Shown: positions 8,321 to 62,225 of the stretch, in pieces
How the letters are laid out: every line of letters starts with the position of its first letter
Position numbering within the stretch: the stretch's first letter is position 1
Origin: Escherichia coli
GTDB taxonomy: Bacteria > Pseudomonadota > Gammaproteobacteria > Enterobacterales > Enterobacteriaceae
Assembly (NCBI RefSeq): GCF_003018255.1
Contig: NZ_CP027440.1
Length of the DNA: 64,000 nt
Reading direction: 5' to 3' (one strand)
Position numbers and translations under genes: made by a program
The notes under the pieces: model-generated
Database searches by the model: none
What the model was told of the DNA's origin: nothing
What the model saw: the letters and a program-made list of their open reading frames with translations, nothing else

Positions 8321-8482
8321 CCCGCTAGGAACAAGGCGCGTGAAAATTCCCCACGCTGAGATGGTTTACTGTTCTTCTTTTCGGTAAGCATATTTTTTAT
8401 CGAATGGATGTGAAATTAATCACAGTAGTCGAAATTTTTTAGCAGCTTAACTTACTGAAATTTAACTACTGATGATTGACTT

Positions 8483-8581
8483 AGCCCCTTTTTCGGCAGC
8501 CCCTTTTTCGGCATTGACTATGTCTTTTTCGGCATTGACTATGTCTTTTTCGGCATTGACTATGTCGTCTGAAAAGGGGCT
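8483..8581. repeat. Three perfect tandem copies of 21-bp unit ctttttcggcattgactatgt (8503-8565), preceded by two copies of gcccctttttcggca, flanked by inverted repeat agcccctttt / aaaaggggct
   Basis: Read directly from sequence in tehB-ydcL intergenic region. Confidence 0.7.
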
Positions 8582-8679
8582 AAAAAATTTATTTTCACCA
8601 ACACTTTTTTTGCCACAACACGAAGCGGCGCTTTTTGCTATAACTTAGAAAGTAATATAATCATCTCAGGAAACTATTC

Positions 8680-13539: not shown

Positions 13540-13760
13540 CCTGCCACCTTTTTCTTACCTTTTGTCGCTATGATGCCGATCGTTTCTTGAGGTTATTATT
13601 CAGTTTTGCAAATTAGCGCAAAGAAATTCTGGAATCTTCCTTCCTGATTTTGCATTGCATTCTGCCGTTGCGGCGATTTAGTGCTATTTTCGAGCAAATT
13701 ACACACGGAGGTAAACACTAATGTTTACTTTGTTGATATACTCAGCGGCAGGGAGGCGAT

Positions 13761-13937
13761 GTGAAACAAAGCGAGTTCAGACGTTGGCTCGAATCTCAGG
13801 GCGTCGATGTGGCGAATGGCAGCAACCATTTGAAACTCAGGTTTCAAGGGCGACGCAGTGTCATGCCGCGTCACCCCAGTGATGAGATAAAAGAACCATT
13901 GCGTAAAGCAATCCTGAAGCAACTCGGTTTAAATTAA
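13761..13937 (+). CDS. hicA: HicA mRNA interferase toxin (type II TA)
   Basis: 58-aa GTG-initiated ORF (VKQSEFRRWLESQGV...LKQLGLN) translated by hand; below ORF-track length cutoff; immediately upstream of hicB. Confidence 0.8.
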   Translation: MKQSEFRRWLESQGVDVANGSNHLKLRFQGRRSVMPRHPSDEIKEPLRKAILKQLGLN

Positions 13938-13959: not shown

Positions 13960-14397
13960 ATGCGAGAGACAGTCAAAATTATGCGTTATCCCGTCACTCT
14001 TACTCCTGCGCCGGAAGGCGGTTATGTGGTTTCTTTTGTAGATATCCCTGAAGCGTTGACGCAGGGAGAAACTGTTGCTGAAGCGATGGAAGCAGCAAAA
14101 GATGCCTTACTCACCGCATTTGATTTTTATTTTGAAGATAATGAGCTAATCCCGTTGCCTTCGCCATTAACTAACAACGATCACTTTATTGAAGTGCCTT
14201 TAAGTATCGCCTCTAAAGTATTGCTGTTAAATGCTTTTTTACAGTCAGAAATCACTCAGCAAGAGTTAGCCAGACGAATTGGCAAACCTAAACAGGAGAT
14301 TACTCGCTTATTTAACTTGCACCATGCTACAAAAATCGACGCCGTCCAGCTTGCGGCTAAGGCGCTTGGCAAAGAGTTATCACTGGTGATGGTTTGA
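13960..14397 (+). CDS. hicB: HicB antitoxin (N-terminal RNase H-like fold, C-terminal HTH)
   Basis: 145-aa ORF 23 nt downstream of hicA; alternative start at 13981 (138 aa). Confidence 0.85.
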   Translation: MRETVKIMRYPVTLTPAPEGGYVVSFVDIPEALTQGETVAEAMEAAKDALLTAFDFYFEDNELIPLPSPLTNNDHFIEVPLSIASKVLLLNAFLQSEITQQELARRIGKPKQEITRLFNLHHATKIDAVQLAAKALGKELSLVMV

Positions 14398-20050: not shown

Positions 20051-21475
20051 ATGCAACATAAGTTACTGATTAACGGAGAACTGGTTAGCGGCGAAGGGGA
20101 AAAACAGCCTGTCTATAATCCGGCAACGGGGGACGTTTTACTGGAGATTGCCGAGGCATCCGCAGAGCAGGTCGATGCTGCTGTTCGCGCGGCAGATGCA
20201 GCATTTGCCGAATGGGGGCAAACCACGCCGAAAGTGCGTGCGGAATGTCTGCTGAAACTGGCTGATGTTATCGAAGAAAATGGTCAGGTTTTTGCCGAAC
20301 TGGAGTCCCGTAATTGTGGCAAACCGCTGCATAGTGCGTTCAATGATGAAATCCCGGCGATTGTCGATGTTTTTCGCTTTTTCGCTGGTGCGGCGCGCTG
20401 TCTGAATGGTCTGGCGGCAGGTGAATATCTTGAAGGTCATACTTCGATGATCCGTCGCGATCCGTTGGGGGTCGTGGCTTCTATCGCACCGTGGAATTAT
20501 CCGCTGATGATGGCTGCGTGGAAACTGGCTCCGGCGCTGGCGGCAGGGAACTGCGTAGTGCTTAAACCATCAGAAATTACCCCGCTGACAGCGTTGAAGT
20601 TGGCAGAGTTGGCGAAAGATATCTTCCCGGCTGGCGTGATTAATGTACTGTTTGGCAGAGGCAAAACGGTGGGCGATCCGCTGACCGGTCATCCCAAAGT
20701 GCGGATGGTGTCGCTGACGGGCTCTATCGCCACTGGGGAACACATCATCAGCCATACCGCGCCGTCCATAAAGCGTACTCATATGGAACTTGGTGGCAAA
20801 GCGCCAGTGATTGTTTTTGATGATGCGGATATTGAGGCAGTGGTCGAAGGTGTACGTACATTTGGCTATTACAATGCCGGACAGGATTGTACTGCGGCTT
20901 GTCGGATCTACGCGCAAAAAGGCATTTACGATACGCTGGTGGAAAAACTGGGTGCTGCGGTGGCAACGTTAAAATCTGGTGCGCCGGATGACGAGTCTAC
21001 GGAGCTTGGACCTTTAAGCTCGCTGGCGCATCTCGAACGCGTCAGCAAGGCAGTAGAAGAGGCGAAAGCGACAGGGCACATCAAAGTGATCACTGGCGGT
21101 GAAAAGCGCAAGGGTAATGGCTATTACTATGCGCCGACGCTGCTGGCTGGCGCATTACAGGACGATGCCATCGTGCAAAAAGAGGTATTTGGTCCAGTAG
21201 TGAGTGTTACACTCTTCGACAACGAAGAACAGGTGGTAAACTGGGCGAATGACAGCCAGTACGGACTTGCATCTTCGGTATGGACGAAAGATGTGGGCAG
21301 GGCGCATCGCGTCAGCGCACGGCTGCAATATGGTTGTACCTGGGTCAATACCCATTTCATGCTGGTAAGTGAAATGCCGCACGGTGGGCAGAAACTTTCT
21401 GGTTACGGCAAGGATATGTCACTTTATGGGCTGGAGGATTACACCGTCGTCCGCCACGTCATGGTTAAACATTAA
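20051..21475 (+). CDS. patD: Gamma-aminobutyraldehyde dehydrogenase (aldehyde dehydrogenase family)
   Basis: 474-aa ORF; ALDH catalytic motifs (ELGGKAP, ...GQDCTAA...). Confidence 0.9.
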
Positions 21476-21515
21476 GGATAATATTGCAGATCGTAAGAGT
21501 ATGAGATGATCTTGC

Positions 21516-21548
21516 GTACTGTCAGAGCACTGATTTCTCTGACAGTAC
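21516..21548. terminator. Perfect 12-bp inverted repeat gtactgtcagag / ctctgacagtac with 9-nt loop between convergent patD and yncL
   Basis: Read directly from sequence; no strong U-run. Confidence 0.4.
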
Positions 21549-21571
21549 GTGCTGCGTGCAAAATCACTACA

Positions 21572-21667
21572 TCAAATAAACCAGCCAAATCTCATAGAGA
21601 TAAGAGTAAACAAACCAACAGCAGCAAAGACATTTATCAGTACTACAGTTCTACTGGAAACATTCAT
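21572..21667 (-). CDS. yncL: Small membrane protein YncL (31 aa)
   Basis: Hand-translated minus-strand ORF MNVSSRTVVLINVFAAVGLFTLISMRFGWFI; below ORF-track cutoff; the overlapping plus-strand ORF 21506..21703 is rejected. Confidence 0.65.
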   Translation of the reverse strand: MNVSSRTVVLINVFAAVGLFTLISMRFGWFI

Positions 21668-21861
21668 TTTTGCCACCTTTTATCATTGCCCCTATGTGTA
21701 TAGTACGGGTTAAGAAAATCCGCAATAATACTCATTCTGAAGATGGATAAGGGCAAGTTGCTGTTTGATGTTTTTTTCTCAAACCGGTTAAAAAACTTGA
21801 TGTACGTCAAAAAATGACGCATATTTGCGCGCGTTTTATTCATCTGGCTGGACGCCCGTAC

Positions 21862-22035
21862 ATGTCTCTCTATCAACACATGCTTGTTTTTTATGCGGTT
21901 ATGGCAGCAATCGCATTTCTTATCACCTGGTTTCTTTCTCACGATAAGAAACGCATCCGTTTCTTAAGCGCCTTTCTGGTGGGGGCAACATGGCCGATGA
22001 GTTTCCCGGTGGCGCTGTTGTTTTCACTGTTTTAA
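21862..22035 (+). CDS. ortT: Small inner-membrane protein OrtT (YdcX)
   Basis: ORF 21814..22035; ATG at 21862 gives 57 aa hydrophobic protein. Confidence 0.7.
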   Translation: MSLYQHMLVFYAVMAAIAFLITWFLSHDKKRIRFLSAFLVGATWPMSFPVALLFSLF

Positions 22036-22120
22036 ATCTTACTCACTGGCTTGACGGCACCACGCAGACTTATATCATTTGGATGAATCGATAAATTTCA
22101 CAAGTGGCTAAGGAGAAAGT

Positions 22121-31626: not shown

Positions 31627-32461
31627 AAGGATAAATGGCGTTCTCTGTATTTATTCGCGATTATCTGTAGGACAAATATGGAGCGCTTGATGAGTCAGAG
31701 CTAAAACAGCAATTGATAAATAAACATGTTGATTTATTCAAGAAAATGGATGTATTTCAAATATTGATTCTTAATATAACCTAATCAATAGATTATCACG
31801 TGAGAGCTGCACATTATTGGAGGGGCAGGGGAAAACACCATTTTGGGAACAATGAATCAGGTACTCTTACCACTGAAGCAAGATCATCCGGGCACCAGGT
31901 GGTGGTGCAGTGCTTTGGAAATGGTCCCCTCGGGGGAGTTGTCATTATTTTCTATGCTATTTGCTTATGATATTCATCAGGTGAATTTAATAAATTCCTA
32001 ATTTTAAATATCCACTATTAAGCCAGTGTTTAACGGCGTTAAGATGGCAATGTGCAGATCATGTTATCAGAGTGGGGCGGTAGCGTATATTCCTTATACA
32101 AACCATCATTCATTTCAATGATTGTTATTGAATTATTTATTGTTGTGAATAAAAAGACATTATGAATATTGGTTTGACTTTGCATATCAGGTTTTTTATT
32201 ATTCGCTCTAATGTACGAGCCTGTCGTGAATAACGTCGAGAACCCATCCGTTGCGTTTGTGATTATTTTGTTGACTAAACAGACACCCGTTTCTCTGAAG
32301 TAAAATCCCATACTAAATCATCACATAACCATGACATTTTTCTGATATTCCCCGGTAACGCCAGATGTCGACTCGCTTATCTCATCCGCCCGACATGTTG
32401 TACATGCAATATGTGCGGATTATTATTCATTTTCACGGAGGTTGCTATGTCAACCGGATTA

Positions 32462-33753
32462 CCAGGGAAAGATCACGTAACGCTGCTTTTTTGCACTAAA
32501 TAATTCGCATTTTATGTTTAAAAATTGAGATATTCCTCATTACCTGAAGCTGTTTTTTATTGCGTATACATGTTCAAATACTCCTTACATAATTAAGGAG
32601 AACAAAATGGAACTTAAAAAATTGATGGAACATATTTCTGTTATCCCCGATTACAGACAAGCCTGGAAAGTGGAACATAAATTGTCGGATATTCTACTGT
32701 TGACTATTTGTGCCGTTATTTCTGGTGCAGAAGGCTGGGAAGATATAGAGGATTTTGGGGAAACACATCTCGATTTTTTGAAGCAATATGGTGATTTTGA
32801 AAATGGTATTCCTGTTCACGATACCATTGCCAGAGTTGTATCCTGTATCAGTCCTGCAAAATTTCACGAGTGCTTTATTAACTGGATGCGTGACTGCCAT
32901 TCTTCAGATGATAAAGACGTTATTGCAATTGATGGAAAAACGCTCCGGCATTCTTATGACAAGAGTCGCCGCAGGGGAGCGATTCATGTCATTAGTGCGT
33001 TCTCAACAATGCACAGTCTGGTCATCGGACAGATCAGGACGGATGAGAAATCCAATGAGATCACAGCTATCCCAGAACTTCTTAACATGATGGATATTAA
33101 AGGAAAAATCATCACAACTGATGCGATGGGTTGCCAGAAAGATATCGCAGATAAGATACAAAAACAGGGCGGTGATTATTTATTCGCTGTAAAAGGAAAT
33201 CAGGGGCGGCTTAATAAAGCCTTTGAGGAAAATTTCCCACTGAAAGAATTAAATAATCCAGAGCATGACAGTTACGCAATTAGTGAAAAAAGTCACGGCA
33301 GAGAAGAAATCCGTCTTCATATTGTTTGCGATGTCCCTGATGAACTTATTGATTTCATGTTTGAATGGAAAGGTCTGAAGAAATTATGCGTGGCAGTCTC
33401 CTTTCGGTCAATAATAGCAGAACAAAAGAAAGAGCCAGAAATGACGGTCAGATATTATATCAGTTCTGCTGATTTAACCGCAGAGAAGTTCGCCACAGCA
33501 ATCCGAAACCACTGGCACGTGGAGAATAAGCTGCACTGGCGTCTGGACGTGGTAATGAATGAAGACGACTGCAAAATAAGAAGAGGAAATGCAGCAGAAT
33601 TATTTTCAGGGATACGGCACATCGCTATTAATATTTTAACGAATGATAATGTATTCAAGGCAGGGTTAAGACGTAAGATGCGAAAAGCAGCCATGGACAG
33701 AAACTACCTGGCGTCAGTCCTTGCGGGGAGCGGGCTTTCGTAATCTTTCCCTG
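32462..33753 (+). mobile_element. H-repeat element (ISAs1-family insertion sequence), copy 1, about 1292 bp with imperfect terminal inverted repeats cagggaaagatca ... taatctttccctg
   Basis: Near-identical to copy 2 at 39125..40415; ends defined by where the two copies lose similarity to each other; IRs read from sequence. Confidence 0.8.
32607..33743 (+). CDS. H-repeat-associated protein / ISAs1-family transposase (378 aa)
   Basis: 378-aa ORF with AAGGAG site; about 97 percent identical to the ORF at 39269..40405; recognised as YdcC/YhhI-type H-rpt protein. Confidence 0.85.
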
Positions 33754-34359
33754 AACACCGAGGTGCTGAATAACCGCACCACGGATGTGATAAACAACCA
33801 TGCTGAGACCATCGGCAACAATCAGGTGATTGCGGTTACCAACAATCAGATACAGACGGTGGGCGTTAACCAGATAGAGACGGTGGGCAGTAACCAGATC
33901 ATTAAAGTGGGCTCTGTTCAGGTGGAAACGATTGGACTTGTTCGTGCGCTGACCGTGGGCGTGGCGTATCAGACGACGGTAGGTGGCATTATGAACACCT
34001 CGGTGGCCCTGATGCAGTCCTCGCAGATCGGTTTGCATAAATCGTTGATGGTCGGGCTGGGTTATGACGTCAAAGTCGGAAATAACGTTACCTTCACCGT
34101 TGGTAAAACGAAAAAGGATGATACCGGACAGACCGCGATTTACTCCGCCGGTGAGCATCTGGAACTCTGCTGTGGTAAGGCAAGGCTGGTGCTGACTAAG
34201 GACGGACAAATTTTTCTCAACGGCACAAAAATTCATTTGCAGGGTAAGGAGCAGGTTAATGGTGACTCACTGTTGATTAACTGGAACTGTGCAGCCTCGA
34301 AATCCCCACCGAAGACCCCTGATGAAAAGCAGGATACGCCGGATATGAGAGAGTACTGA
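33754..34359 (+). pseudogene. VgrG (T6SS spike protein) C-terminal fragment, 5'-truncated at the H-repeat boundary
   Basis: Reading frame open from the H-rpt right end; product carries VgrG C-terminal repeat motifs (VINNHAETIGNNQVIAVTNNQIQTVGVNQIETVGSNQ...). Confidence 0.7.
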
Positions 34360-34425
34360 TCCCGTACCTGTTCGGTATTCAGTAACAAACAAGCATTAAA
34401 AATAAACAGAAGAAGGAATTGAATC

Positions 34426-37400
34426 ATGAGCGGAAAACCAGCGGCGCGTCAGGGAGATATGACTCAGTATGGCGGTCCCATTGTCCAGGGTTCGGCAGGT
34501 GTAAGAATTGGCGCGCCCACCGGCGTGGCGTGCTCGGTGTGTCCGGGCGGGATGACTTCGGGCAACCCGGTAAATCCGCTGCTGGGGGCGAAGGTGCTGC
34601 CCGGCGAGACGGACCTTGCGCTGCCCGGCCCGCTGCCGTTCATTCTCTCCCGCACCTACAGCAGCTACCGGACGAAGACGCCTGCGCCGGTGGGGATTTT
34701 TGGCCCCGGCTGGAAAGCGCCTTCTGATATCCGCTTACAGATACGCGATGATGCACTGGTACTCAACGACAACGGCGGACGGAGCATTCACTTTGAGCCG
34801 CTGCTGCCGGGTGAGGCGGTGTACAGCCGCAGCGAGTCAATGTGGCTGGTGCGCGGTGGTAAGGCAGCGCAGCCGGACGGCCACACGCTGGGGCGGCTGT
34901 GGGGGGCGCTGCCGCCGGATATCCGGTTAAGCCCGCATCTTTACCTGGCGACCAGCAGCGCACAGGGACCGTGGTGGATACTGGGGTGGTCAGAGCGGGT
35001 GCCGGGTGCTGAGGACGTACTGCCAGCGCCGCTGCCGCCGTACCGGGTGCTGACGGGGCTGGCGGACCGCTTCGGGCGGACGCTGACGTACCGGCGTGAG
35101 GCCGCCGGCGACCTGGCCGGGGAAATCACCGGCGTGACGGACGGTGCCGGGCGTGAGTTCCGTCTGGTGCTGACCACGCAGGCGCAGCGTGCGGAAGAGG
35201 CCCGCACCTCTTCGCTATCTTCTTCTGACCGTCCCCGCCCTCTCTCAGTCTCAGCGTTCCCCGACACACTGCCCGGTACCGAATACGGCCCCGACAGGGG
35301 TATCCGCCTTTCGGCGGTGTGGCTGATGCACGACCCGGCATACCCGGAGAGCCTGCCCGGTGCGCCACTGGTGCGGTACACGTATACGGAAGCCGGTGAA
35401 CTGCTGGCGGTATATGACCGCAGCAATACGCAGGTGCGCGCTTTCACGTATGACGCGCAGCACCCGGGCCGGATGGTGGCGCACCGTTACGCGGGAAGGC
35501 CGGAGATGCGCTACCGCTACGACGATGCGGGGCGGGTGGTGGAGCAGCTGAACCCGGCAGGCCTGAGTTACCGCTACCAGTATGAGCAGGACCGCATCAC
35601 CGTCACCGACAGCCTGAACCGGCGTGAGGTGCTGCATACAGAAGGCGGGGCCGGGCTGAAGCGGGTGGTGAAAAAAGAACTGGCGGACGGCAGCGTCACG
35701 CACAGCGGGTATGACGCGGCAGGAAGGCTCACGGCACAGACGGACGCGGCGGGACGGCGGACAGAGTACGGCCTGAATGTGGTGTCCGGCGATATCACGG
35801 ATATCACCACGCCGGACGGGCGGGAGACGAAATTTTACTATAACGACGGGAACCAGTTAACGGCGGTGGTGTACCCGGACGGGCTGGAGAGCAGCCGGGC
35901 ATATGATGAGCTGGACAGACTGGTATCGGAGACATCGCGCAGCGGGGAGACAGTACGCTACCGCTACGATGACGTGCACAGTGAGTTACCGGCGACGACA
36001 ACGGATGCGACGGGCAGCACCCGGCAGATGACCTGGAGCCGCTACGGGCAGTTGCTGGCCTTCACCGACTGCTCGGGCTACCAGACCCGCTATGAATACG
36101 ACCGCTTCGGCCAGATGACGGCGGTTCACCGCGAGGAAGGTATCAGCCTTTACCGCCACTATGACAACCGTGGCCGGTTAACCTCGGTGAAAGACGCACA
36201 GGGCCGTGAAACGCAGTATGAGTACAACGCCGCAGGCGACCTGACTGCCGTTATCACCCCGGACGGCAACCGGAGCGAGACACAGTACGATGCGTGGGGA
36301 AAGGCGGTCAGCACCACGCAGGGCGGGCTGACGCGCAGTATGGAGTACGATGCTGCCGGACGTGTCATCAGCCTGACCAACGAGAACGGCAGTCACAGCG
36401 ACTTCAGCTACGATGCGCTGGACCGCCTGGTACAGCAGGGCGGCTTTGACGGGCGGACGCAACGTTATCATTATGACCTGACCGGAAAACTCACGCAGAG
36501 TGAAGATGAGGGGCTTGTCATCCTCTGGTACTACGATGAATCGGACCGTATCACTCACCGCACGGTGAACGGCGAACCGGCAGAGCAGTGGCAGTATGAT
36601 GGCCACGGCTGGCTGAGAGAAATCAGCCACCTGAGCGAAGGCCACCGTGTTGCCGTCCACTATGGCTACGACGATAAGGGCCGTCTGACCGGGGAGCGCC
36701 AGACGGTGGAGAACCCGGAGACGGGGGAACTGCTGTGGCAGCATGAGACGAAACAGGCATACAACGAACAGGGGCTGGCAAACCGCGTCACGCCGGACAG
36801 CCTGCCGCCGGTGGAGTGGCTGGCCTATGGCAGCGGTTATCTGGCGGGCATGAAGCTGGGCGGGACGCCGCTGCTGGAGTACATGCGGGACAGACTGCAC
36901 CGGGAGACGGTGCGCAGCTTCGGCAGCATGGCAGGCAATACAGCCGCATATGAACTGACCAGCACTTACACCCCCGCAGGCCAGTTACAGAGCCGGCACC
37001 TGAACAGCCTGGTGTTTGATTGTGACTATAACTGGAATGACAACGGCGACCTGATGCGCATCAGCGGCCCGCGACAGACGCGGGAATACGGCTACAGCGC
37101 CACGGGCAGGCTGGAGAGCGTGCGCACCCTCGCACCGGACCTGGACATCCGCATCCCGTATGCCACCGACCCGGCGGGCAACCGGCTGCCGGACCCGGAG
37201 CTGCACCCGGACAGTACACTCACAGTGTGGCCGGATAACCGAATCACCGAAGACGCGCACTACCTGTACCGTTACGATGAATACGGCAGGCTGGCGGAGA
37301 AGACGGACCGCATCCCGGCGGGTGTGATACGGACGGACGACGAGCGGACCCACCACTACCACTACGACAGCCAGCACCGCCTGGTGTTCTATACGCGGAT

Positions 37401-38586
37401 ACAGCATGGCGAGCCACTGGTCGAGAGCCGCTACCTTTACGACCCGCTGGGCCGCCGGACGGGTAAACGGGTATGGCGGCGGGAGCGTGACCTGACGGGG
37501 TGGATGTCGCTGTCGCGTAAACCGGAGGTGACGTGGTACGGCTGGGACGGCGACCACCTGACGACGGTGCAGACCGACACCACGCGTATCCAGACGGTAT
37601 ATCAGCCGGGGAGCTTCGCGCCGCTCATCCGCATCGAAACAGACAACGGTGAGCGGGAGAAAGCGCAGCGCCGCAGCCTGGCGGAGAAGCTGCAGCAGGA
37701 AGGGAGCGAGGACGGGCACGGCGTGGTATTTCCGGCTGAACTGGTGCGGCTGCTGGACAGACTGGAGGAAGAAATCCGGGCAGACCGCGTGAGCAGTGAA
37801 AGCCGGGCGTGGCTTGCGCAGTGCGGGCTGACGGTGGAGCAACTGGAAAAACAGGTGGAGCCGGAATACACACCGGCGCGAAAAGTTCATCTTTACCACT
37901 GCGACCACCGGGGACTGCCGCTGGCGCTTATCAGCGAAGACGGCAATACGGTGTGGAGCGCGGAGTATGATGAATGGGGAAACCTGCTTAATGAGGAGAA
38001 CCCGCATCATGTGTATCAGTCATACCGTCTGCCGGGGCAGCAGCATGATGAGGAGTCGGGGCTGTACTACAACCGGAACCGGTACTACGATCCGTTGCAG
38101 GGGCGGTATATCATCCAGGACCCGATAGGGCTGGCGGGGGGAATAAACCCGTACAGTTATGTTATGAACAATCCTGTGCAATGGATTGATCCATTGGGAT
38201 TAGCTCATACTTCAGGAAAATGGAAGGACTGTGGTAAAGGTTGTCGAATCCGAATAGATGGCGATGCTGTTGGTGACGGAAGACATTTGCATTGGGAGTG
38301 TAAAAATGGGAGTGGTGTAATGGGGGAATTTGGAGGTATGTCCCATGGTGAGGATTACTCATCAGCACCAAATAGCATTAAGAAATGTGCAAAAAAATAT
38401 GGTTTCGAGCCAGAACCAAGTAAAGATCTGTCATGCAAAACCTCCGGGCTATCAACTACTGATGCGGCTCTTGCAACTGGTGCTACAATTGGCGCAGGGT
38501 ATGTTATATATAGAGTGATTCGATTTATACCTTCACTTGCACCACCTCTTTGGTGGTCAATACCTGCAAACGTTGTTACTCCATGA
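34426..38586 (+). CDS. rhsE: Rhs-family polymorphic toxin with N-terminal PAAR motif, YD-repeat core and divergent C-terminal domain (1386 aa)
   Basis: Literal PAAR at residues 5-8 ([11 protein letters not shown]); numerous YD repeats; conserved core end DPIGLAGG...DPLGL at 38119-38202; sharp GC-rich to AT-rich switch after about 38160. Confidence 0.9.
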
Positions 38587-38612
38587 TTAAAACGGATAAT
38601 GGAGATTATATA

Positions 38613-38957
38613 ATGAGCGATTTTGACATTGTGAGTTCAATTGACTGGCATGATGGGGTTTTGTTAGAAGTAAAAACGACATTCAAAGAATCTCATTTTA
38701 ACATGACGTTATTTATTGACATTTATAAAAATGAGAACATTAGGGAAAAAATGATAGTTGAATTTTCTGATGTAGATGATTTAGTGTTCGCTATGGATTC
38801 TGCTGAGTTAATCGATAATCACAAGTCAGGTAATATAAGTAATGGGTATGTAAAGAAATTAAAAAACAAAAGGATATATAAATTTTTTCTTTATTTTTCT
38901 GATGGCTTATTAAGCATGACATTTAAAAATTTACAATTAATAAAACCATTAGAGTAA
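38613..38957 (+). CDS. Putative Rhs immunity protein (small AT-rich ORF downstream of the Rhs C-terminal domain)
   Basis: ORF 38550..38957; ATG 38613 preceded by GGAG at 8-nt spacing (114 aa); alternative ATG 38583 overlaps the rhsE stop as ATGA (124 aa); position and AT-richness typical of Rhs immunity genes. Confidence 0.55.
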   Translation: MSDFDIVSSIDWHDGVLLEVKTTFKESHFNMTLFIDIYKNENIREKMIVEFSDVDDLVFAMDSAELIDNHKSGNISNGYVKKLKNKRIYKFFLYFSDGLLSMTFKNLQLIKPLE

Positions 38958-39124
38958 CCAAATAAAAGGACTGGAGGAATCAGGGGAAGATCATTAAAGT
39001 TGTGATTATCATCACAACTTTAATCTTGGTTTCACCTTGTTGATTTGATTAAAATTTAATCGCCAAATAATTAAATATATTAGAAAAGGACGTCTGGTGA
39101 ACATTCAAAGTCTTCTTGAGCATA

Positions 39125-40415
39125 CAGGGAAAGATCATCAGAAGTACACTTTTTGTACTAAATAATTCGCATTTTATGTTTAAAAATTGAGATATTCCTC
39201 ATTACCTAAAGCTGTTTTTTATTGCTTATACATGATCAAATACTCCTTACATAATTAAGGAGAACAAAATGGAACTTAAAAAATTGATGGGACATATTTC
39301 TATTATCCCCGATTACAGACAAACCTGGAAAGTGGAACATAAATTGTCAGATATTCTACTGTTGATTATTAGTGCCGTTATTTCTGGTGCAGAAGGCTGG
39401 GAAGATATAGAGGATTTTGGGGAAACACATCTCGATTTTTTAAAGCAATATGGTGATTTTAAAAATGGTATTCCTGTTCACGATACCATTGCCAGAGTTG
39501 TATCCTGTATCAGTCCTGCAAAATTTCACGAGTGCTTTATTAACTGGATGCGTGACTGCCATTCTTCAGATGATAAAGACGTCATTGCAATTGATGGAAA
39601 AACGCTCCGGCATTCTTATGACAAGAGTCGTCGCAGGGGAGCGATTCATGTCATTAGTGCATTCTCAACAATGCACAGTCTGGTCATCGGACAGATCAGG
39701 ACGGATGAGAAATCTAATGAGATTACAGCTATCCCTGAACTTCTTAACATGCTGGACATTAAAGGAAAAATTATCACAACTGATGCGATGGGTTGCCAGA
39801 AAGATATTGCAGAGAAGATACAAAAACAGGGAGGTGATTATTTATTCTCTGTAAAAGGAAACCCGGGGCGGCTGAATAAAGCTTTTGAGGAAAAATTTCC
39901 ACTGAAAGAATTAAATAATCCAGAGCATGACAGTTACGCAATTAGTGAAAAGAGTCACGGCAGAGAAGAAATCCGTCTTCACATTGTTTGCGATGTCCCT
40001 GATGAACTTATTGATTTCACGTTTGAATGGAAAGGTCTGAAGAAATTATGCGTGGCAGTCTCCTTTCGGTCAATAATAGCAGAACAAAAGAAAGAGCCAG
40101 AAATGACGGTCAGATATTATATCAGTTCTGCTGATTTAACCGCAGAGATGTTCGCCACAGCAATCCGAAACCACTGGCACGTGGAGAATAAGCTGCACTG
40201 GCGTCTGGACGTGGTAATGAATGAAGACGACTGCAAAATAAGAAGAGGAAACGCCGCAGAATTATTTTCAGGGATACGGCACATCGCTATTAATATTTTA
40301 ACGAATGATAAGGTATTCAAGGCAGGGTTAAGACGTAAGATGCGAAAAGCAGCCATGGACAAAAACTATCTGGCGTCAGTCCTTGCGGGGAGCGGGCTTT
40401 CGTAATCTTTCCCTG
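39125..40415 (+). mobile_element. H-repeat element (ISAs1-family insertion sequence), copy 2, about 1291 bp, same orientation as copy 1
   Basis: Near-identical to 32462..33753 including terminal inverted repeats. Confidence 0.8.
39269..40405 (+). CDS. H-repeat-associated protein / ISAs1-family transposase (378 aa)
   Basis: 378-aa ORF with AAGGAG site; paralogue of 32607..33743. Confidence 0.85.
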
Positions 40416-40419
40416 TATT

Positions 40420-40707
40420 GTGAAATCATCAAGAGTACATATAGATCATGATAAAGATATTTTTGATGGCCTTGACAAAATCTTGGCTTTTTCCGATAAA
40501 AATAAGCATGAGTATTTTTTATATATAAAGGCATATTGGCTCAGTTTATACTTTTGTGAAATTTCTCAGAAAGTGAGAGAAAGAGATAAGTTGTCATTTT
40601 ATTATGATGAATTTTCTGTCCGATTTCCTAATGTTGTCCTATATCCGACATACTTCCAATTGCATGGTTTAGCATCTGAAAAGTCATTGTTAATTCGAGA
40701 CGCTTGA
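40420..40707 (+). other. AT-rich reading frame open from the H-repeat right boundary (95 codons); probable 3' remnant of a gene truncated by the insertion
   Basis: Frame is open right at the element end; no recognisable product. Confidence 0.3.
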
Positions 40708-40986
40708 TTGTCCACTATATCAAAATAGTCATGCCCCGGAATTTTCTCACATTAGTCCATAAGGGATTCAATTTTTGTAATTGCACCCTGAAAAAACCGC
40801 AAAAGTGCTTTGTCGTGTCCTGTCGCAATGAAGTCTGGTGTTAATGTTATACTTTAATTGATATTTAAAGAGATGGCTTCTTTGCTTATATAAATACCCA
40901 TCTATTCTTTCTCAAAAATATTGGCTCAGATTAACCATGTTCCACGCAAACAATTTTCAAACATTCATCAATAGATAAGGAATTCC

Positions 40987-41454
40987 ATGATTATACGACC
41001 AGTCAAACCTTCAGATGTTGAACCATTACTGGATATGCTGCTTGCCAGTGGACAATTTAATCAAGATGGCCTTCATCATGTACAAAAAACACTAACACAT
41101 TATTTCTCAGGTCAATCTGCCGATTTATGGTTTAGTGCAGAACACTTAGGACTGGCAGGGATTGCCTATTGCGCTCCTGAAGTGATGACAAATGATGTCT
41201 GGAATTTATTAATGCACTGGATCAGTCCTTCCCATCAGCGCCAGGGAGTGGGACATCTGCTGATTAACGAAATAGAAAAGGAGCTCACAATTAAACAGGC
41301 AAGACTACTTTTAGTAGAGACCTCCAGCTATGTCGATTTTAGTGCCGCCCGCGCATTTTATACATAACAGGGCTTTATCAATGAAGCTATAATACGCAAT
41401 TACTATGATGTTGGTGAGGATAAATTAATCTTCACTAAAAATATGCAATCGTGA
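40987..41454 (+). pseudogene. GNAT-family N-acetyltransferase interrupted by an in-frame TAA at 41365-41367
   Basis: ORF 40987..41367 (126 aa) continues in the same frame for 28 more codons to TGA 41452-41454; sequence around the stop reads AFYT*QGF versus the GNAT consensus FY.K.GF. Confidence 0.6.
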
Positions 41455-41520
41455 GATAAAATATGCTTTTAACTCATATTGAAACATTGCTTAAGCAACT
41501 TGGTTGCTGCATATGATTCT

Positions 41521-53700: not shown

Positions 53701-56700
53701 ATGGACGTCAGTCGCAGACAATTTTTTAAAATCTGCGCGGGCGGTATGGCTGGAACAACGGTAGCGGCATTGGGCTTTGCCCCGAAGCAAGCACTGGCTC
53801 AGGCGCGAAACTACAAATTATTACGCGCGAAAGAGATCCGTAACACCTGCACATACTGTTCCGTAGGTTGCGGGCTATTGATGTATAGCCTGGGTGATGG
53901 CGCGAAAAACGCCAGAGAAGCGATTTATCACATTGAAGGTGACCCGGATCATCCGGTAAGCCGTGGTGCGCTGTGCCCGAAAGGGGCCGGTTTGCTGGAT
54001 TACGTCAACAGCGAAAACCGTCTGCGCTACCCGGAATATCGTGCGCCAGGTTCTGACAAATGGCAGCGCATTAGCTGGGAAGAAGCATTCTCCCGTATTG
54101 CGAAGCTGATGAAAGCTGACCGTGACGCTAACTTTATTGAAAAGAACGAGCAGGGCGTAACGGTAAACCGTTGGCTTTCTACCGGTATGCTGTGTGCCTC
54201 CGGTGCCAGCAACGAAACCGGGATGCTGACTCAAAAATTTGCCCGCTCCCTCGGGATGCTGGCAGTAGACAACCAGGCGCGCGTCTGACACGGACCAACG
54301 GTAGCAAGTCTTGCTCCAACATTTGGTCGCGGTGCGATGACCAACCACTGGGTGGATATCAAAAACGCTAACGTCGTAATGGTGATGGGCGGTAACGCTG
54401 CTGAAGCGCATCCCGTCGGTTTCCGCTGGGCGATGGAAGCGAAAAACAACAACGATGCAACCTTGATCGTTGTCGATCCCCGTTTTACGCGTACCGCTTC
54501 TGTAGCGGATATTTACGCACCTATTCGTTCCGGTACGGACATTACGTTCCTGTCTGGCGTTTTGCGCTACCTGATCGAAAACAACAAAATCAATGCCGAA
54601 TACGTTAAGCATTACACCAATGCCAGCCTGCTGGTGCGTGATGATTTTGCTTTCGAAGACGGTCTGTTCAGCGGCTACGACGCTGAAAAACGGCAATACG
54701 ATAAATCGTCCTGGAACTATCAGTTCGATGAAAACGGCTATGCGAAACGCGATGAAACACTGACTCATCCGCGCTGTGTGTGGAACCTGCTGAAAGCGCA
54801 CGTTTCCCGCTACACGCCGGACGTTGTTGAAAACATCTGCGGTACGCCAAAAGCCGACTTCCTGAAAGTGTGTGAAGTGCTGGCCTCCACCAGCGCACCG
54901 GATCGCACAACCACCTTCCTGTACGCGCTGGGCTGGACGCAGCACACCGTGGGTGCGCAGAACATCCGTACTATGGCGATGATCCAGTTGCTGCTCGGTA
55001 ACATGGGTATGGCCGGTGGCGGCGTGAACGCATTGCGTGGTCACTCCAACATTCAGGGCCTGACCGACTTAGGTCTGCTCTCAACCAGCCTGCCGGGTTA
55101 TCTGACGCTGCCGTCAGAAAAACAGGTTGATTTGCAGTCGTATCTGGAAGCGAATACGCCGAAAGCGACGCTGGCTGATCAGGTGAACTACTGGAGCAAC
55201 TATCCGAAGTTCTTCGTTAGCCTGATGAAATCTTTCTACGGCGATGCCGCGCAAAAAGAGAACAACTGGGGCTACGACTGGCTGCCGAAGTGGGACCAGA
55301 CCTACGACGTCATCAAGTATTTCAACATGATGGACGAAGGCAAAGTCACCGGTTATTTCTGCCAGGGCTTTAACCCGGTTGCGTCCTTCCCGGACAAAAA
55401 CAAAGTGGTGAGCTGCCTGAGCAAGCTGAAGTACATGGTGGTTATCGATCCGCTGGTGACTGAAACCTCTACCTTCTGGCAGAACCACGGCGAGTCGAAC
55501 GATGTCGATCCGGCGTCCATTCAGACTGAAGTATTCCGTCTGCCTTCGACCTGCTTTGCTGAAGAAGATGGTTCTATTGCTAACTCCGGTCGCTGGTTGC
55601 AGTGGCACTGGAAAGGTCAGGACGCGCCGGGCGAAGCACGTAACGACGGCGAAATTCTGGCGGGTATCTACCATCATCTGCGCGAGCTGTACCAGGCCGA
55701 GGGTGGTAAAGGCGTAGAACCGCTGATGAAGATGAGCTGGAACTACAAGCAGCCGCACGAACCGCAATCTGACGAAGTGGCGAAAGAGAACAACGGCTAT
55801 GCGCTGGAAGATCTCTATGACGCTAATGGCGTGCTGATTGCGAAGAAAGGTCAGTTGCTGAGTAGCTTTGCGCATCTGCGTGATGATGGTACAACCGCAT
55901 CTTCTTGCTGGATCTACACCGGTAGCTGGACAGAGCAGGGCAACCAGATGGCTAACCGCGATAACTCCGACCCGTCCGGTCTGGGGAATACGCTGGGATG
56001 GGCCTGGGCGTGGCCGCTCAACCGTCGCGTGCTGTACAACCGTGCTTCGGCGGATATCAACGGTAAACCGTGGGATCCGAAACGGATGCTGATCCAGTGG
56101 AACGGCAGCAAGTGGACGGGTAACGATATTCCGGACTTCGGCAATGCCGCACCGGGTACGCCAACCGGGCCGTTTATCATGCAGCCGGAAGGGATGGGAC
56201 GCCTGTTTGCCATCAACAAAATGGCGGAAGGTCCGTTCCCGGAACACTACGAGCCAATCGAAACGCCGCTGGGCACTAACCCGCTGCATCCGAACGTGGT
56301 GTCTAACCCGGTTGTTCGTCTGTATGAACAAGACGCGCTGCGGATGGGTAAAAAAGAGCAGTTCCCGTATGTGGGTACGACCTATCGTCTGACCGAGCAC
56401 TTCCACACCTGGACCAAGCACGCATTGCTCAACGCAATTGCTCAGCCGGAACAGTTTGTGGAAATCAGCGAAACGCTGGCGGCGGCGAAAGGCATTGCCA
56501 ATGGCGATCGTGTCACTGTCTCCAGCAAGCGTGGCTTTATCCGCGCGGTGGCTGTGGTAACGCGCCGTCTGAAACCGCTGAATGTAAACGGTCAGCAGGT
56601 TGAAACGGTGGGTATTCCAATCCACTGGGGCTTTGAGGGTGTCGCGCGTAAAGGTTATATCGCTAACACTCTGACGCCGAATGTCGGTGATGCAAACTCG

Positions 56701-58291: not shown

Positions 58292-58313
58292 TCTCTTTTG
58301 AACTTTAAGCTGA

Positions 58314-58344
58314 AAATGGCGCTTTAAGAAGCGCCATTTTTTTA
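58314..58344. terminator. Rho-independent terminator after fdnI (aaatggcgc-tttaagaa-gcgccattt + TTTTT); overlaps the 3' end of convergent yddM
   Basis: Hairpin plus T-run read from sequence. Confidence 0.6.
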
Positions 58345-62020: not shown

Positions 62021-62057
62021 ATAAAAACAAAAACACCATTGCGCAGGCAATGGTGTT
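62021..62057 (-). terminator. Rho-independent terminator downstream of sra
   Basis: Hairpin aacaccattgc-gcag-gcaatggtgtt with U-run on the minus-strand transcript. Confidence 0.45.
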
Positions 62058-62087
62058 TAATCGTCATTGAGGACTGATGGTTATGAA

Positions 62088-62225
62088 TTACTTTTCAGCG
62101 GGGCGTTTTCTGCCTGTTGGGTTATTTACCACGCTGGATTTGTCACCTTCGGTAACTATTTTGCGCTGGTTAGAAATTTTATGGTCCAGTCCAAGAATAT
62201 GACGTGCCTGACGGTTCGATTTCAT
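62088..62225 (-). CDS. sra: Stationary-phase ribosome-associated protein SRA (30S protein S22), 45 aa
   Basis: Hand-translated minus-strand ORF ending ...GRKRPAEK; below ORF-track cutoff. Confidence 0.8.

Follow-up and report, generated by a model that had tools for sequence, protein, structure and literature searches.

The 31-codon frame on the minus strand between patD and ortT is almost certainly yncL, which is already known and belongs to the core genome of E. coli. The perfect inverted repeat that separates it from patD, which an earlier note on this DNA had left uninterpreted, is most likely a conserved 3′ stem-loop, as judged from related sequences. We examined both in a window of 64,000 nucleotides (the whole stretch of DNA that was analyzed; contig NZ_CP027440.1). 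The window is part of the E. coli chromosome and aligns to K-12 MG1655 at positions ∼1,493,836–1,557,738, save for a variable Rhs/ISAs1 segment.

Identification of yncL

The ATG-initiated ORF at positions 21572–21667 (minus strand) comprises 31 amino acids plus stop and translates to MNVSSRTVVLINVFAAVGLFTLISMRFGWFI. This is exactly the hydrophobic peptide that the earlier note had written down and assigned to the small membrane protein YncL, and the RefSeq and K-12 annotations as well as the NCBIfam family NF000537 agree with the assignment. The note had also proposed an alignment with the annotated small proteins of E. coli. When so aligned, the ORF is 100% identical to RefSeq WP_001303494.1 (“stress response membrane protein YncL”), which has the same coordinates, and 30/31 residues are identical to K-12 YncL (b4598), the sole change being F13V. 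K-12 YncL is encoded at the same locus, has the same neighbors (patD and ortT), and is of the same length. The equivalog model NF000537 is matched with 72.5 bits (cut-off 35, E value 1.8e-20), residues 1–30 of the peptide corresponding to positions 1–30 of the 30 in the profile. The Pfam copy that we searched returned nothing for YncL. Precomputed labels, which differ from this copy, give PF28073:YncL for the 31-aa gene of Salmonella (locus L048, 1207–1302).

A 901-base query around yncL finds matches in 5415 of 5426 complete E. coli genomes. The best of these are 100% identical and carry the annotations patD, yncL, ortT, and ydcY in this order. A bare ORF of 31–34 codons would not be beyond chance, because the window contains 109 intergenic ORFs of 20–74 amino acids. 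We judge yncL to be real because the family match, the conservation of the frame, and published experiments coincide. As to translation, for which the earlier note had looked to ribosome occupancy, native YncL has already been detected by top-down mass spectrometry (PMC12529367).

Tagged versions of this membrane protein have been studied as well, and its location is the inner membrane (PMC12542507, PMC10470546). It is induced in minimal medium, in stationary phase, and upon heat shock (PMC12542507). Production of YncL, achieved by expression from a plasmid, leads to a sublethal, partial depolarization of the membrane, which in turn causes the nucleoid to condense, and to sensitivity to pore-forming peptides (PMC12542507). 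Cleavage of the protein depends on RseP in vivo, which was not reproduced in vitro (PMC10470546).

The peptide carries one hydrophobic helix together with the motifs MxVSS[RK]TV.LIN and RFGWF, which are conserved in 38 species. Residues 7–25 have a mean Kyte-Doolittle hydropathy of 2.2. YncL probably forms a single transmembrane helix (residues ∼7–25) with one basic residue at either flank, and it may act simply through insertion into the membrane. To our knowledge, there is no loss-of-function phenotype for yncL.

In phenotype, YncL resembles YohP of E. coli (27 amino acids), another single-helix peptide of stress and stationary phase, which is RpoS-dependent in Salmonella (PMC12542507, PMC5437024). 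Cells that produce YohP have, as with YncL, a depolarized membrane and a condensed nucleoid (PMC12542507). However, YohP is encoded at another locus, and it responds to oxygen limitation, whereas yncL responds to heat shock.

Conservation of the reading frame

For comparison, we scanned GTDB genomes with a degenerate DNA pattern, which yielded 37 other species-level loci (38 sequences with the query). These loci are from Escherichia, Citrobacter, Salmonella, the Klebsiella oxytoca group, Raoultella, Enterobacter, Pluralibacter, and Intestinirhabdus. The search pattern fixes 11 residues, at which conservation is therefore circular; statistics calculated from the 19 codons that the pattern leaves unconstrained avoid this circularity.

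The frame is 30–31 codons long in 37/37 of the other enterobacterial species. For the whole frame, the pN/pS ratio is 0.22. For the 19 unconstrained codons it is 0.32, and 17 of these codons vary at the third position and seven at the second. Eight residues (Ser-4, Ser-5, Thr-7, Ala-16, Leu-19, Leu-22, Ser-24, and Phe-30) are invariant in all 38 sequences without being forced by the pattern. Other frames over yncL have pN/pS values >1, with the exception of an antisense frame that shares the wobble positions. By these comparative measures, we show here that the 31-codon frame of yncL is under purifying selection.

An exhaustive search among 1.84 billion representative proteins returned only nine clusters, all of which are evidently the same peptide as YncL. 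Judged by these matches, the YncL family is a narrow, enterobacterial one. A public 82-aa protein (P0002) has the unchanged YncL sequence at its N terminus and continues past the stop position across the hairpin described below. It seems to have arisen by stop loss or a frameshift, or to have been miscalled.

Expression signals of yncL

A Shine-Dalgarno motif, AAGGTGG, is located 5 nt upstream of the ATG of yncL (21673–21679, minus strand). It is conserved in nearly all 38 sequences, and its duplex with the anti-Shine-Dalgarno sequence has an energy of −7.2 kcal/mol. Further upstream, ∼30–60 nt from the ATG, the 38 species share the block GTACTATAC with hardly any variation. This block contains a predicted promoter (21697–21725, minus strand) with the −35 element TTGCGG (21725–21720), a 17-nt spacer, a cytosine at position −13 (21703), and the −10 element TATACA (21702–21697). 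The −13C and the TATACA hexamer lead us to predict a promoter of the sigma-S type. This prediction agrees with a peak of RpoS in genomic SELEX within the spacer between yncL and ydcX (ortT) (PMC5493296) and with the sigma-S dependence of the yncL ortholog in Salmonella (PMC4014581, PMC5437024).

From this promoter, yncL would be transcribed as a monocistronic mRNA of ∼180 nt that starts at ∼21690 and ends at the hairpin. STnc1110, the counterpart transcript of Salmonella, has a length of 195 nt (PMC4014581). In RIL-seq and TRIC-seq data, the yncL mRNA has been recovered in chimeras with the small RNAs RprA and KilS, as their partner.

A conserved stem-loop between yncL and patD

The inverted repeat between yncL and patD lies at 21515–21549 and consists of two perfect arms of 13 bp (21515–21527 and 21537–21549) around a 9-nt loop. 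The earlier note had placed a perfect 12-bp repeat at 21516–21548; the repeat and its position between the two genes proved to be real, and the arms described there are the inner part of longer ones. It lies 39 nt past the stop of patD (21475) and 22 nt past the stop of yncL. Such a repeat is beyond chance: perfect inverted repeats with arms of 12 bp or more and loops of 3–12 nt occur four times in the window, compared with 0.075 expected from first-order Markov simulations. The other three lie behind the small Rhs-associated gene (38993–39024), between the convergent genes fdnI and yddM (58313–58340), and at the canonical terminator of sra with its T-run (62031–62058).

The repeat folds with −22.9 kcal/mol (z −4.0) on the yncL strand and with −23.8 kcal/mol (z −2.8) on the patD strand. 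A stable hairpin is present ∼20–30 nt past the stop of yncL in every genus examined, although the sequences of the stems are specific to the genus. Where patD is 0.5–6 kb away, the hairpin remains directly behind yncL. In an alignment of 22 sequences from Escherichia, Citrobacter, and Salmonella, 84.8% of the cells are paired, compared with at most 53% in slid controls, and 9/15 pairs show changes on both sides. The covariation score of 0.263, compared with 0.127 in shuffled alignments, was reached by 0/500 shuffles. Within E. coli, the hairpin is found in 5411/5426 genomes, at a median of one place per genome, and is unannotated.

With a G+C-rich stem of 13–14 pairs between two convergent 3′ ends, the hairpin resembles intrinsic and bidirectional terminators located between convergent genes. 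It differs from them in that the hairpins of E. coli, other Escherichia, and Citrobacter are not followed by a U-tract on either side; in E. coli, none follows the stem on either strand. A terminator scan made no call at the yncL/patD hairpin. Moreover, patD and yncL are among the convergent gene pairs for which overlapping transcripts were reported (PMC12288877). Efficient intrinsic termination at the hairpin is therefore unlikely. The Salmonella hairpin has a stem sequence other than that of E. coli and is followed by a downstream T-run, and Klebsiella and Raoultella have a canonical bidirectional terminator with an A-tract, stem, and T-tract at this position. A search of Rfam in the region 21300–22100 gave no match to the yncL transcript or the hairpin at E values of up to 1.

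A perfect, palindrome-like repeat that lacks a U-tract might also be an element of the DNA itself, such as a palindromic protein-binding site, a dispersed repeat of the REP or MITE type, or a recombination site; insertions of 0.5–6 kb have also occurred between yncL and patD in several genera. We consider such a DNA element very improbable. A dispersed repeat (REP, BIME, or MITE) was rejected on the copy number, as the sequence occurs in a median of one place across the 5411 genomes; a search of the window that allowed up to three mismatches matched the hairpin sequence only once. For a binding site, the arms behave in the wrong way: their sequence differs between genera, yet compensatory substitutions retain the pairing, and the loop varies freely, which points to selection on the folded strand and not on a recognition sequence. 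Operators are also unexpected between two convergent 3′ ends, and a canonical terminator replaces the repeat in Klebsiella and Raoultella.

The hairpin is thus most likely the 3′ stem-loop of the ∼180-nt yncL mRNA, which it has in common with the convergent patD. The 13-bp stem-loop would define or protect the 3′ end of the yncL mRNA. The missing U-tract and the reported overlap of the patD and yncL transcripts suggest that it is probably not a canonical intrinsic terminator but a leaky or factor-assisted one, which would also hold back 3′ exonucleases. In function, it may be nearer to the protective 3′ stem-loops that are left behind by Rho-dependent termination and exonuclease trimming.

Alternative frames and a regulatory RNA at the yncL locus

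Two plus-strand ORFs of 65 and 54 amino acids overlap yncL, and both are longer than yncL itself; in addition, yncL appears in the mechanical ORF list as a 34-aa ORF that begins at an upstream GTG (21572–21676). In some genomes, Prokka picked another frame at this locus (PMC8954029). Still, it is hardly conceivable that any of these is the real gene. The 65-aa ORF (21506–21703, plus strand) covers yncL fully and had been called spurious in the earlier note. Our data bear this out and rule it out as a gene: the frame has in-frame stops in 16/38 orthologous sequences and a pN/pS of 1.13. The 54-aa ORF (21549–21713, plus strand) is open across its overlap with yncL in 38/38 species and has a pN/pS of 0.39. 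However, we rejected it as well, since its openness is an artifact of composition. It has its wobble positions in common with yncL, and a stop could arise in it only opposite a Tyr, His, or Gln codon of yncL; the hydrophobic helix has no such codons. Such a frame is always open and is a trap for claims of overlapping genes. Neither plus-strand ORF matched a family in NCBIfam or Pfam. The GTG start (21676) lies within the conserved Shine-Dalgarno motif and goes out of frame in several species (L012, L026, L029, and the Klebsiella/Raoultella group). We therefore rejected the 34-aa version and take the 31-aa frame with its ATG start to be correct.

It could also be argued that the yncL transcript is mainly a regulatory small RNA, in which the ORF is incidental or secondary. 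The ortholog in Salmonella was indeed first catalogued as the small RNA STnc1110, with bands of 195 and 120 nt (PMC4014581), and the FLAG-tagged Salmonella YncL protein was undetected (PMC5437024). The chimeras of yncL RNA with RprA and KilS, as well as the conserved hairpin at the end of the transcript, can be read in the same way. STnc1110 is the orthologous transcript, and the Salmonella locus (L048) has a patD-like gene, yncL (31 amino acids), and ortT in the same arrangement; STnc1110 differs in having originally been filed as non-coding. On the other hand, a translational lacZ fusion of yncL is expressed in Salmonella (PMC5437024), the native peptide of E. coli is seen by mass spectrometry (PMC12529367), and it has a phenotype of its own (PMC12542507). 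The selection on the frame, its variation at third positions, its fixed length in 38 species, and the conserved Shine-Dalgarno motif likewise speak for a translated mRNA. Furthermore, the transcript belongs to no Rfam family and lacks the U-tail typical of Hfq-dependent small RNAs. Taken together, a mainly regulatory role has only a slim chance of being correct, and we regard yncL as a protein-coding gene, the transcript of which may have a dual function as RNA and peptide template.

Association of yncL with ortT

Divergent from yncL, ortT (also ydcX; 21862–22035, plus strand) encodes a 57-aa membrane toxin of the GhoT/OrtT family. OrtT matches Pfam PF10753 with 96.9 bits (threshold 22.1), residues 4–57 corresponding to positions 1–55 of the 55 in the profile. 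As the earlier note had stated, the gene is buried in a longer ORF, namely one of 73 amino acids (21814–22035). We rejected the start of this longer version (ATG at 21814), which is not conserved outside Escherichia and abuts an FNR-type box. A 24-aa ORF at 21743–21817 was also discarded as a leader peptide of ortT, because its conservation within Escherichia is limited to the first three codons.

The FNR-type box, TTGATGTACGTCAA, is located upstream of ortT (21797–21810, plus strand). It is conserved in Escherichia, Citrobacter, Salmonella, and Kosakonia, and several species of the first two genera have it as a perfect TTGAT-N4-ATCAA. The same site was reported as the FNR ChIP-chip target “ydcX” (PMC1802558).

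In 35/35 loci with enough flanking sequence, and in S. Typhimurium, ortT is situated 180–199 nt upstream of yncL and divergent from it. The outer flanks are less stable: patD lies between 93 nt and 6 kb from the pair, ydcY lies between 450 nt and 9 kb from it, and several genera carry insertions. Two genera possess ortT without yncL. In Kosakonia (L044, 1501–1943), ortT is tandemly duplicated and there is no yncL-like ORF. In Buttiauxella (L046, 1109–1674), ortT also occurs without a yncL-like ORF, and the position of yncL between patD and ortT is taken by a DUF1508 gene of 62 amino acids. We therefore rejected YncL as an obligate partner or antitoxin of OrtT.

Both peptides depolarize the membrane, and the pair is kept where its outer flanks are broken, which suggested to us that yncL and ortT might form a functional two-peptide unit. 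YncL could then modulate OrtT, or both could be part of a joint switch for metabolic silencing. Such a switch would be gated by stress and anaerobiosis; the spacer carries the predicted sigma-S-type promoter of yncL and the FNR box of ortT. The hairpin without a U-tract might in turn couple the expression of yncL to that of patD by convergent transcription. We put these ideas forward as speculative and consider them unlikely to hold.

Other small genes and features of the window

The earlier note had also named sra as a gene that is missed by an ORF track with a cut-off of 60 amino acids, and this is the case. The ORF at 62088–62225 (minus strand) encodes the 45-aa stationary-phase ribosome-associated protein (K-12 b1480), which matches NCBIfam NF007473 at 6.6e-21 and Pfam PF08136 at 2.6e-31. 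The gene is preceded by a strong Shine-Dalgarno motif and followed by a canonical intrinsic terminator (62031–62058, minus strand) with a 12-bp stem, a 4-nt loop, and a T-run. Sra was detected by all mass spectrometry workflows (PMC12529367).

A further gene, hicA (13761–13937, plus strand), was not listed in the note. It has a GTG start, encodes 58 amino acids, and matches Pfam PF07927 at 2.2e-08; the antitoxin gene hicB is located immediately downstream at 13981–14397. OrtT, Sra, and HicA all score above the thresholds of their families (PF10753, PF08136, and PF07927, respectively) and are annotated accordingly, and no differences from these families were found. The hicA gene is overlapped by a 53-aa ORF with a strong Shine-Dalgarno-like motif (13721–13882) and by a 65-aa antisense ORF (13725–13922), both of which look spurious.

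To search for small genes, we compared the 109 intergenic ORFs of 20–74 amino acids with NCBIfam and Pfam. Only yncL, ortT, sra, and hicA matched a curated family, whereas the other 105 did not. Neither the curated K-12 annotation (in the shared regions) nor PGAP (in the variable Rhs segment) contains further genes of less than 60 amino acids. The suggestion that other such genes may exist in the intergenic regions thus held in a trivial sense, with hicA, and not beyond it, as no more family matches were obtained among intergenic ORFs of at least 20 amino acids.

Several other features were observed in the window. The spacer between tehB and ydcL contains perfect tandem repeats at 8483–8566 (a 15-nt unit in 2.1 copies and a 21-nt unit in 3.0 copies). 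This site differs in length from K-12 and yields a repetitive 58-aa ORF (8472–8648). The sole match in the window at the gathering level of Rfam is SECIS_3 (RF01989, 84.3 bits) at 54283–54341 (plus strand) in fdnG, the expected selenocysteine signal of formate dehydrogenase N. The region ∼31700–41500 differs from K-12 and comprises an intact RHS core protein (34426–38586) with a small downstream gene (38613–38957), two copies of an ISAs1 transposase, and a truncated gp5/VgrG fragment. A GNAT gene (40987–41367) occupies the place of K-12 pptA.

Implications

The main value of this analysis is that of a method check. Within 64 kb, a cut-off of 60 amino acids hides four annotated genes: yncL, sra, and hicA are hidden outright, and ortT is visible only by way of a wrong, longer start. 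At yncL, such an ORF track displays the spurious antisense ORF instead of the gene. All four genes had been annotated previously, have curated family models, and are the subject of published experiments. The observation and the interpretation of the earlier note were correct for genes that were already known, and the biology of the organism is unchanged by them.

What our comparison adds is modest. The 31-aa frame with its ATG start is favored over the 34-aa frame with the GTG, and in the genomes examined yncL is always found beside ortT. The hairpin, which is kept by compensatory changes across genera, travels with yncL and not with patD.
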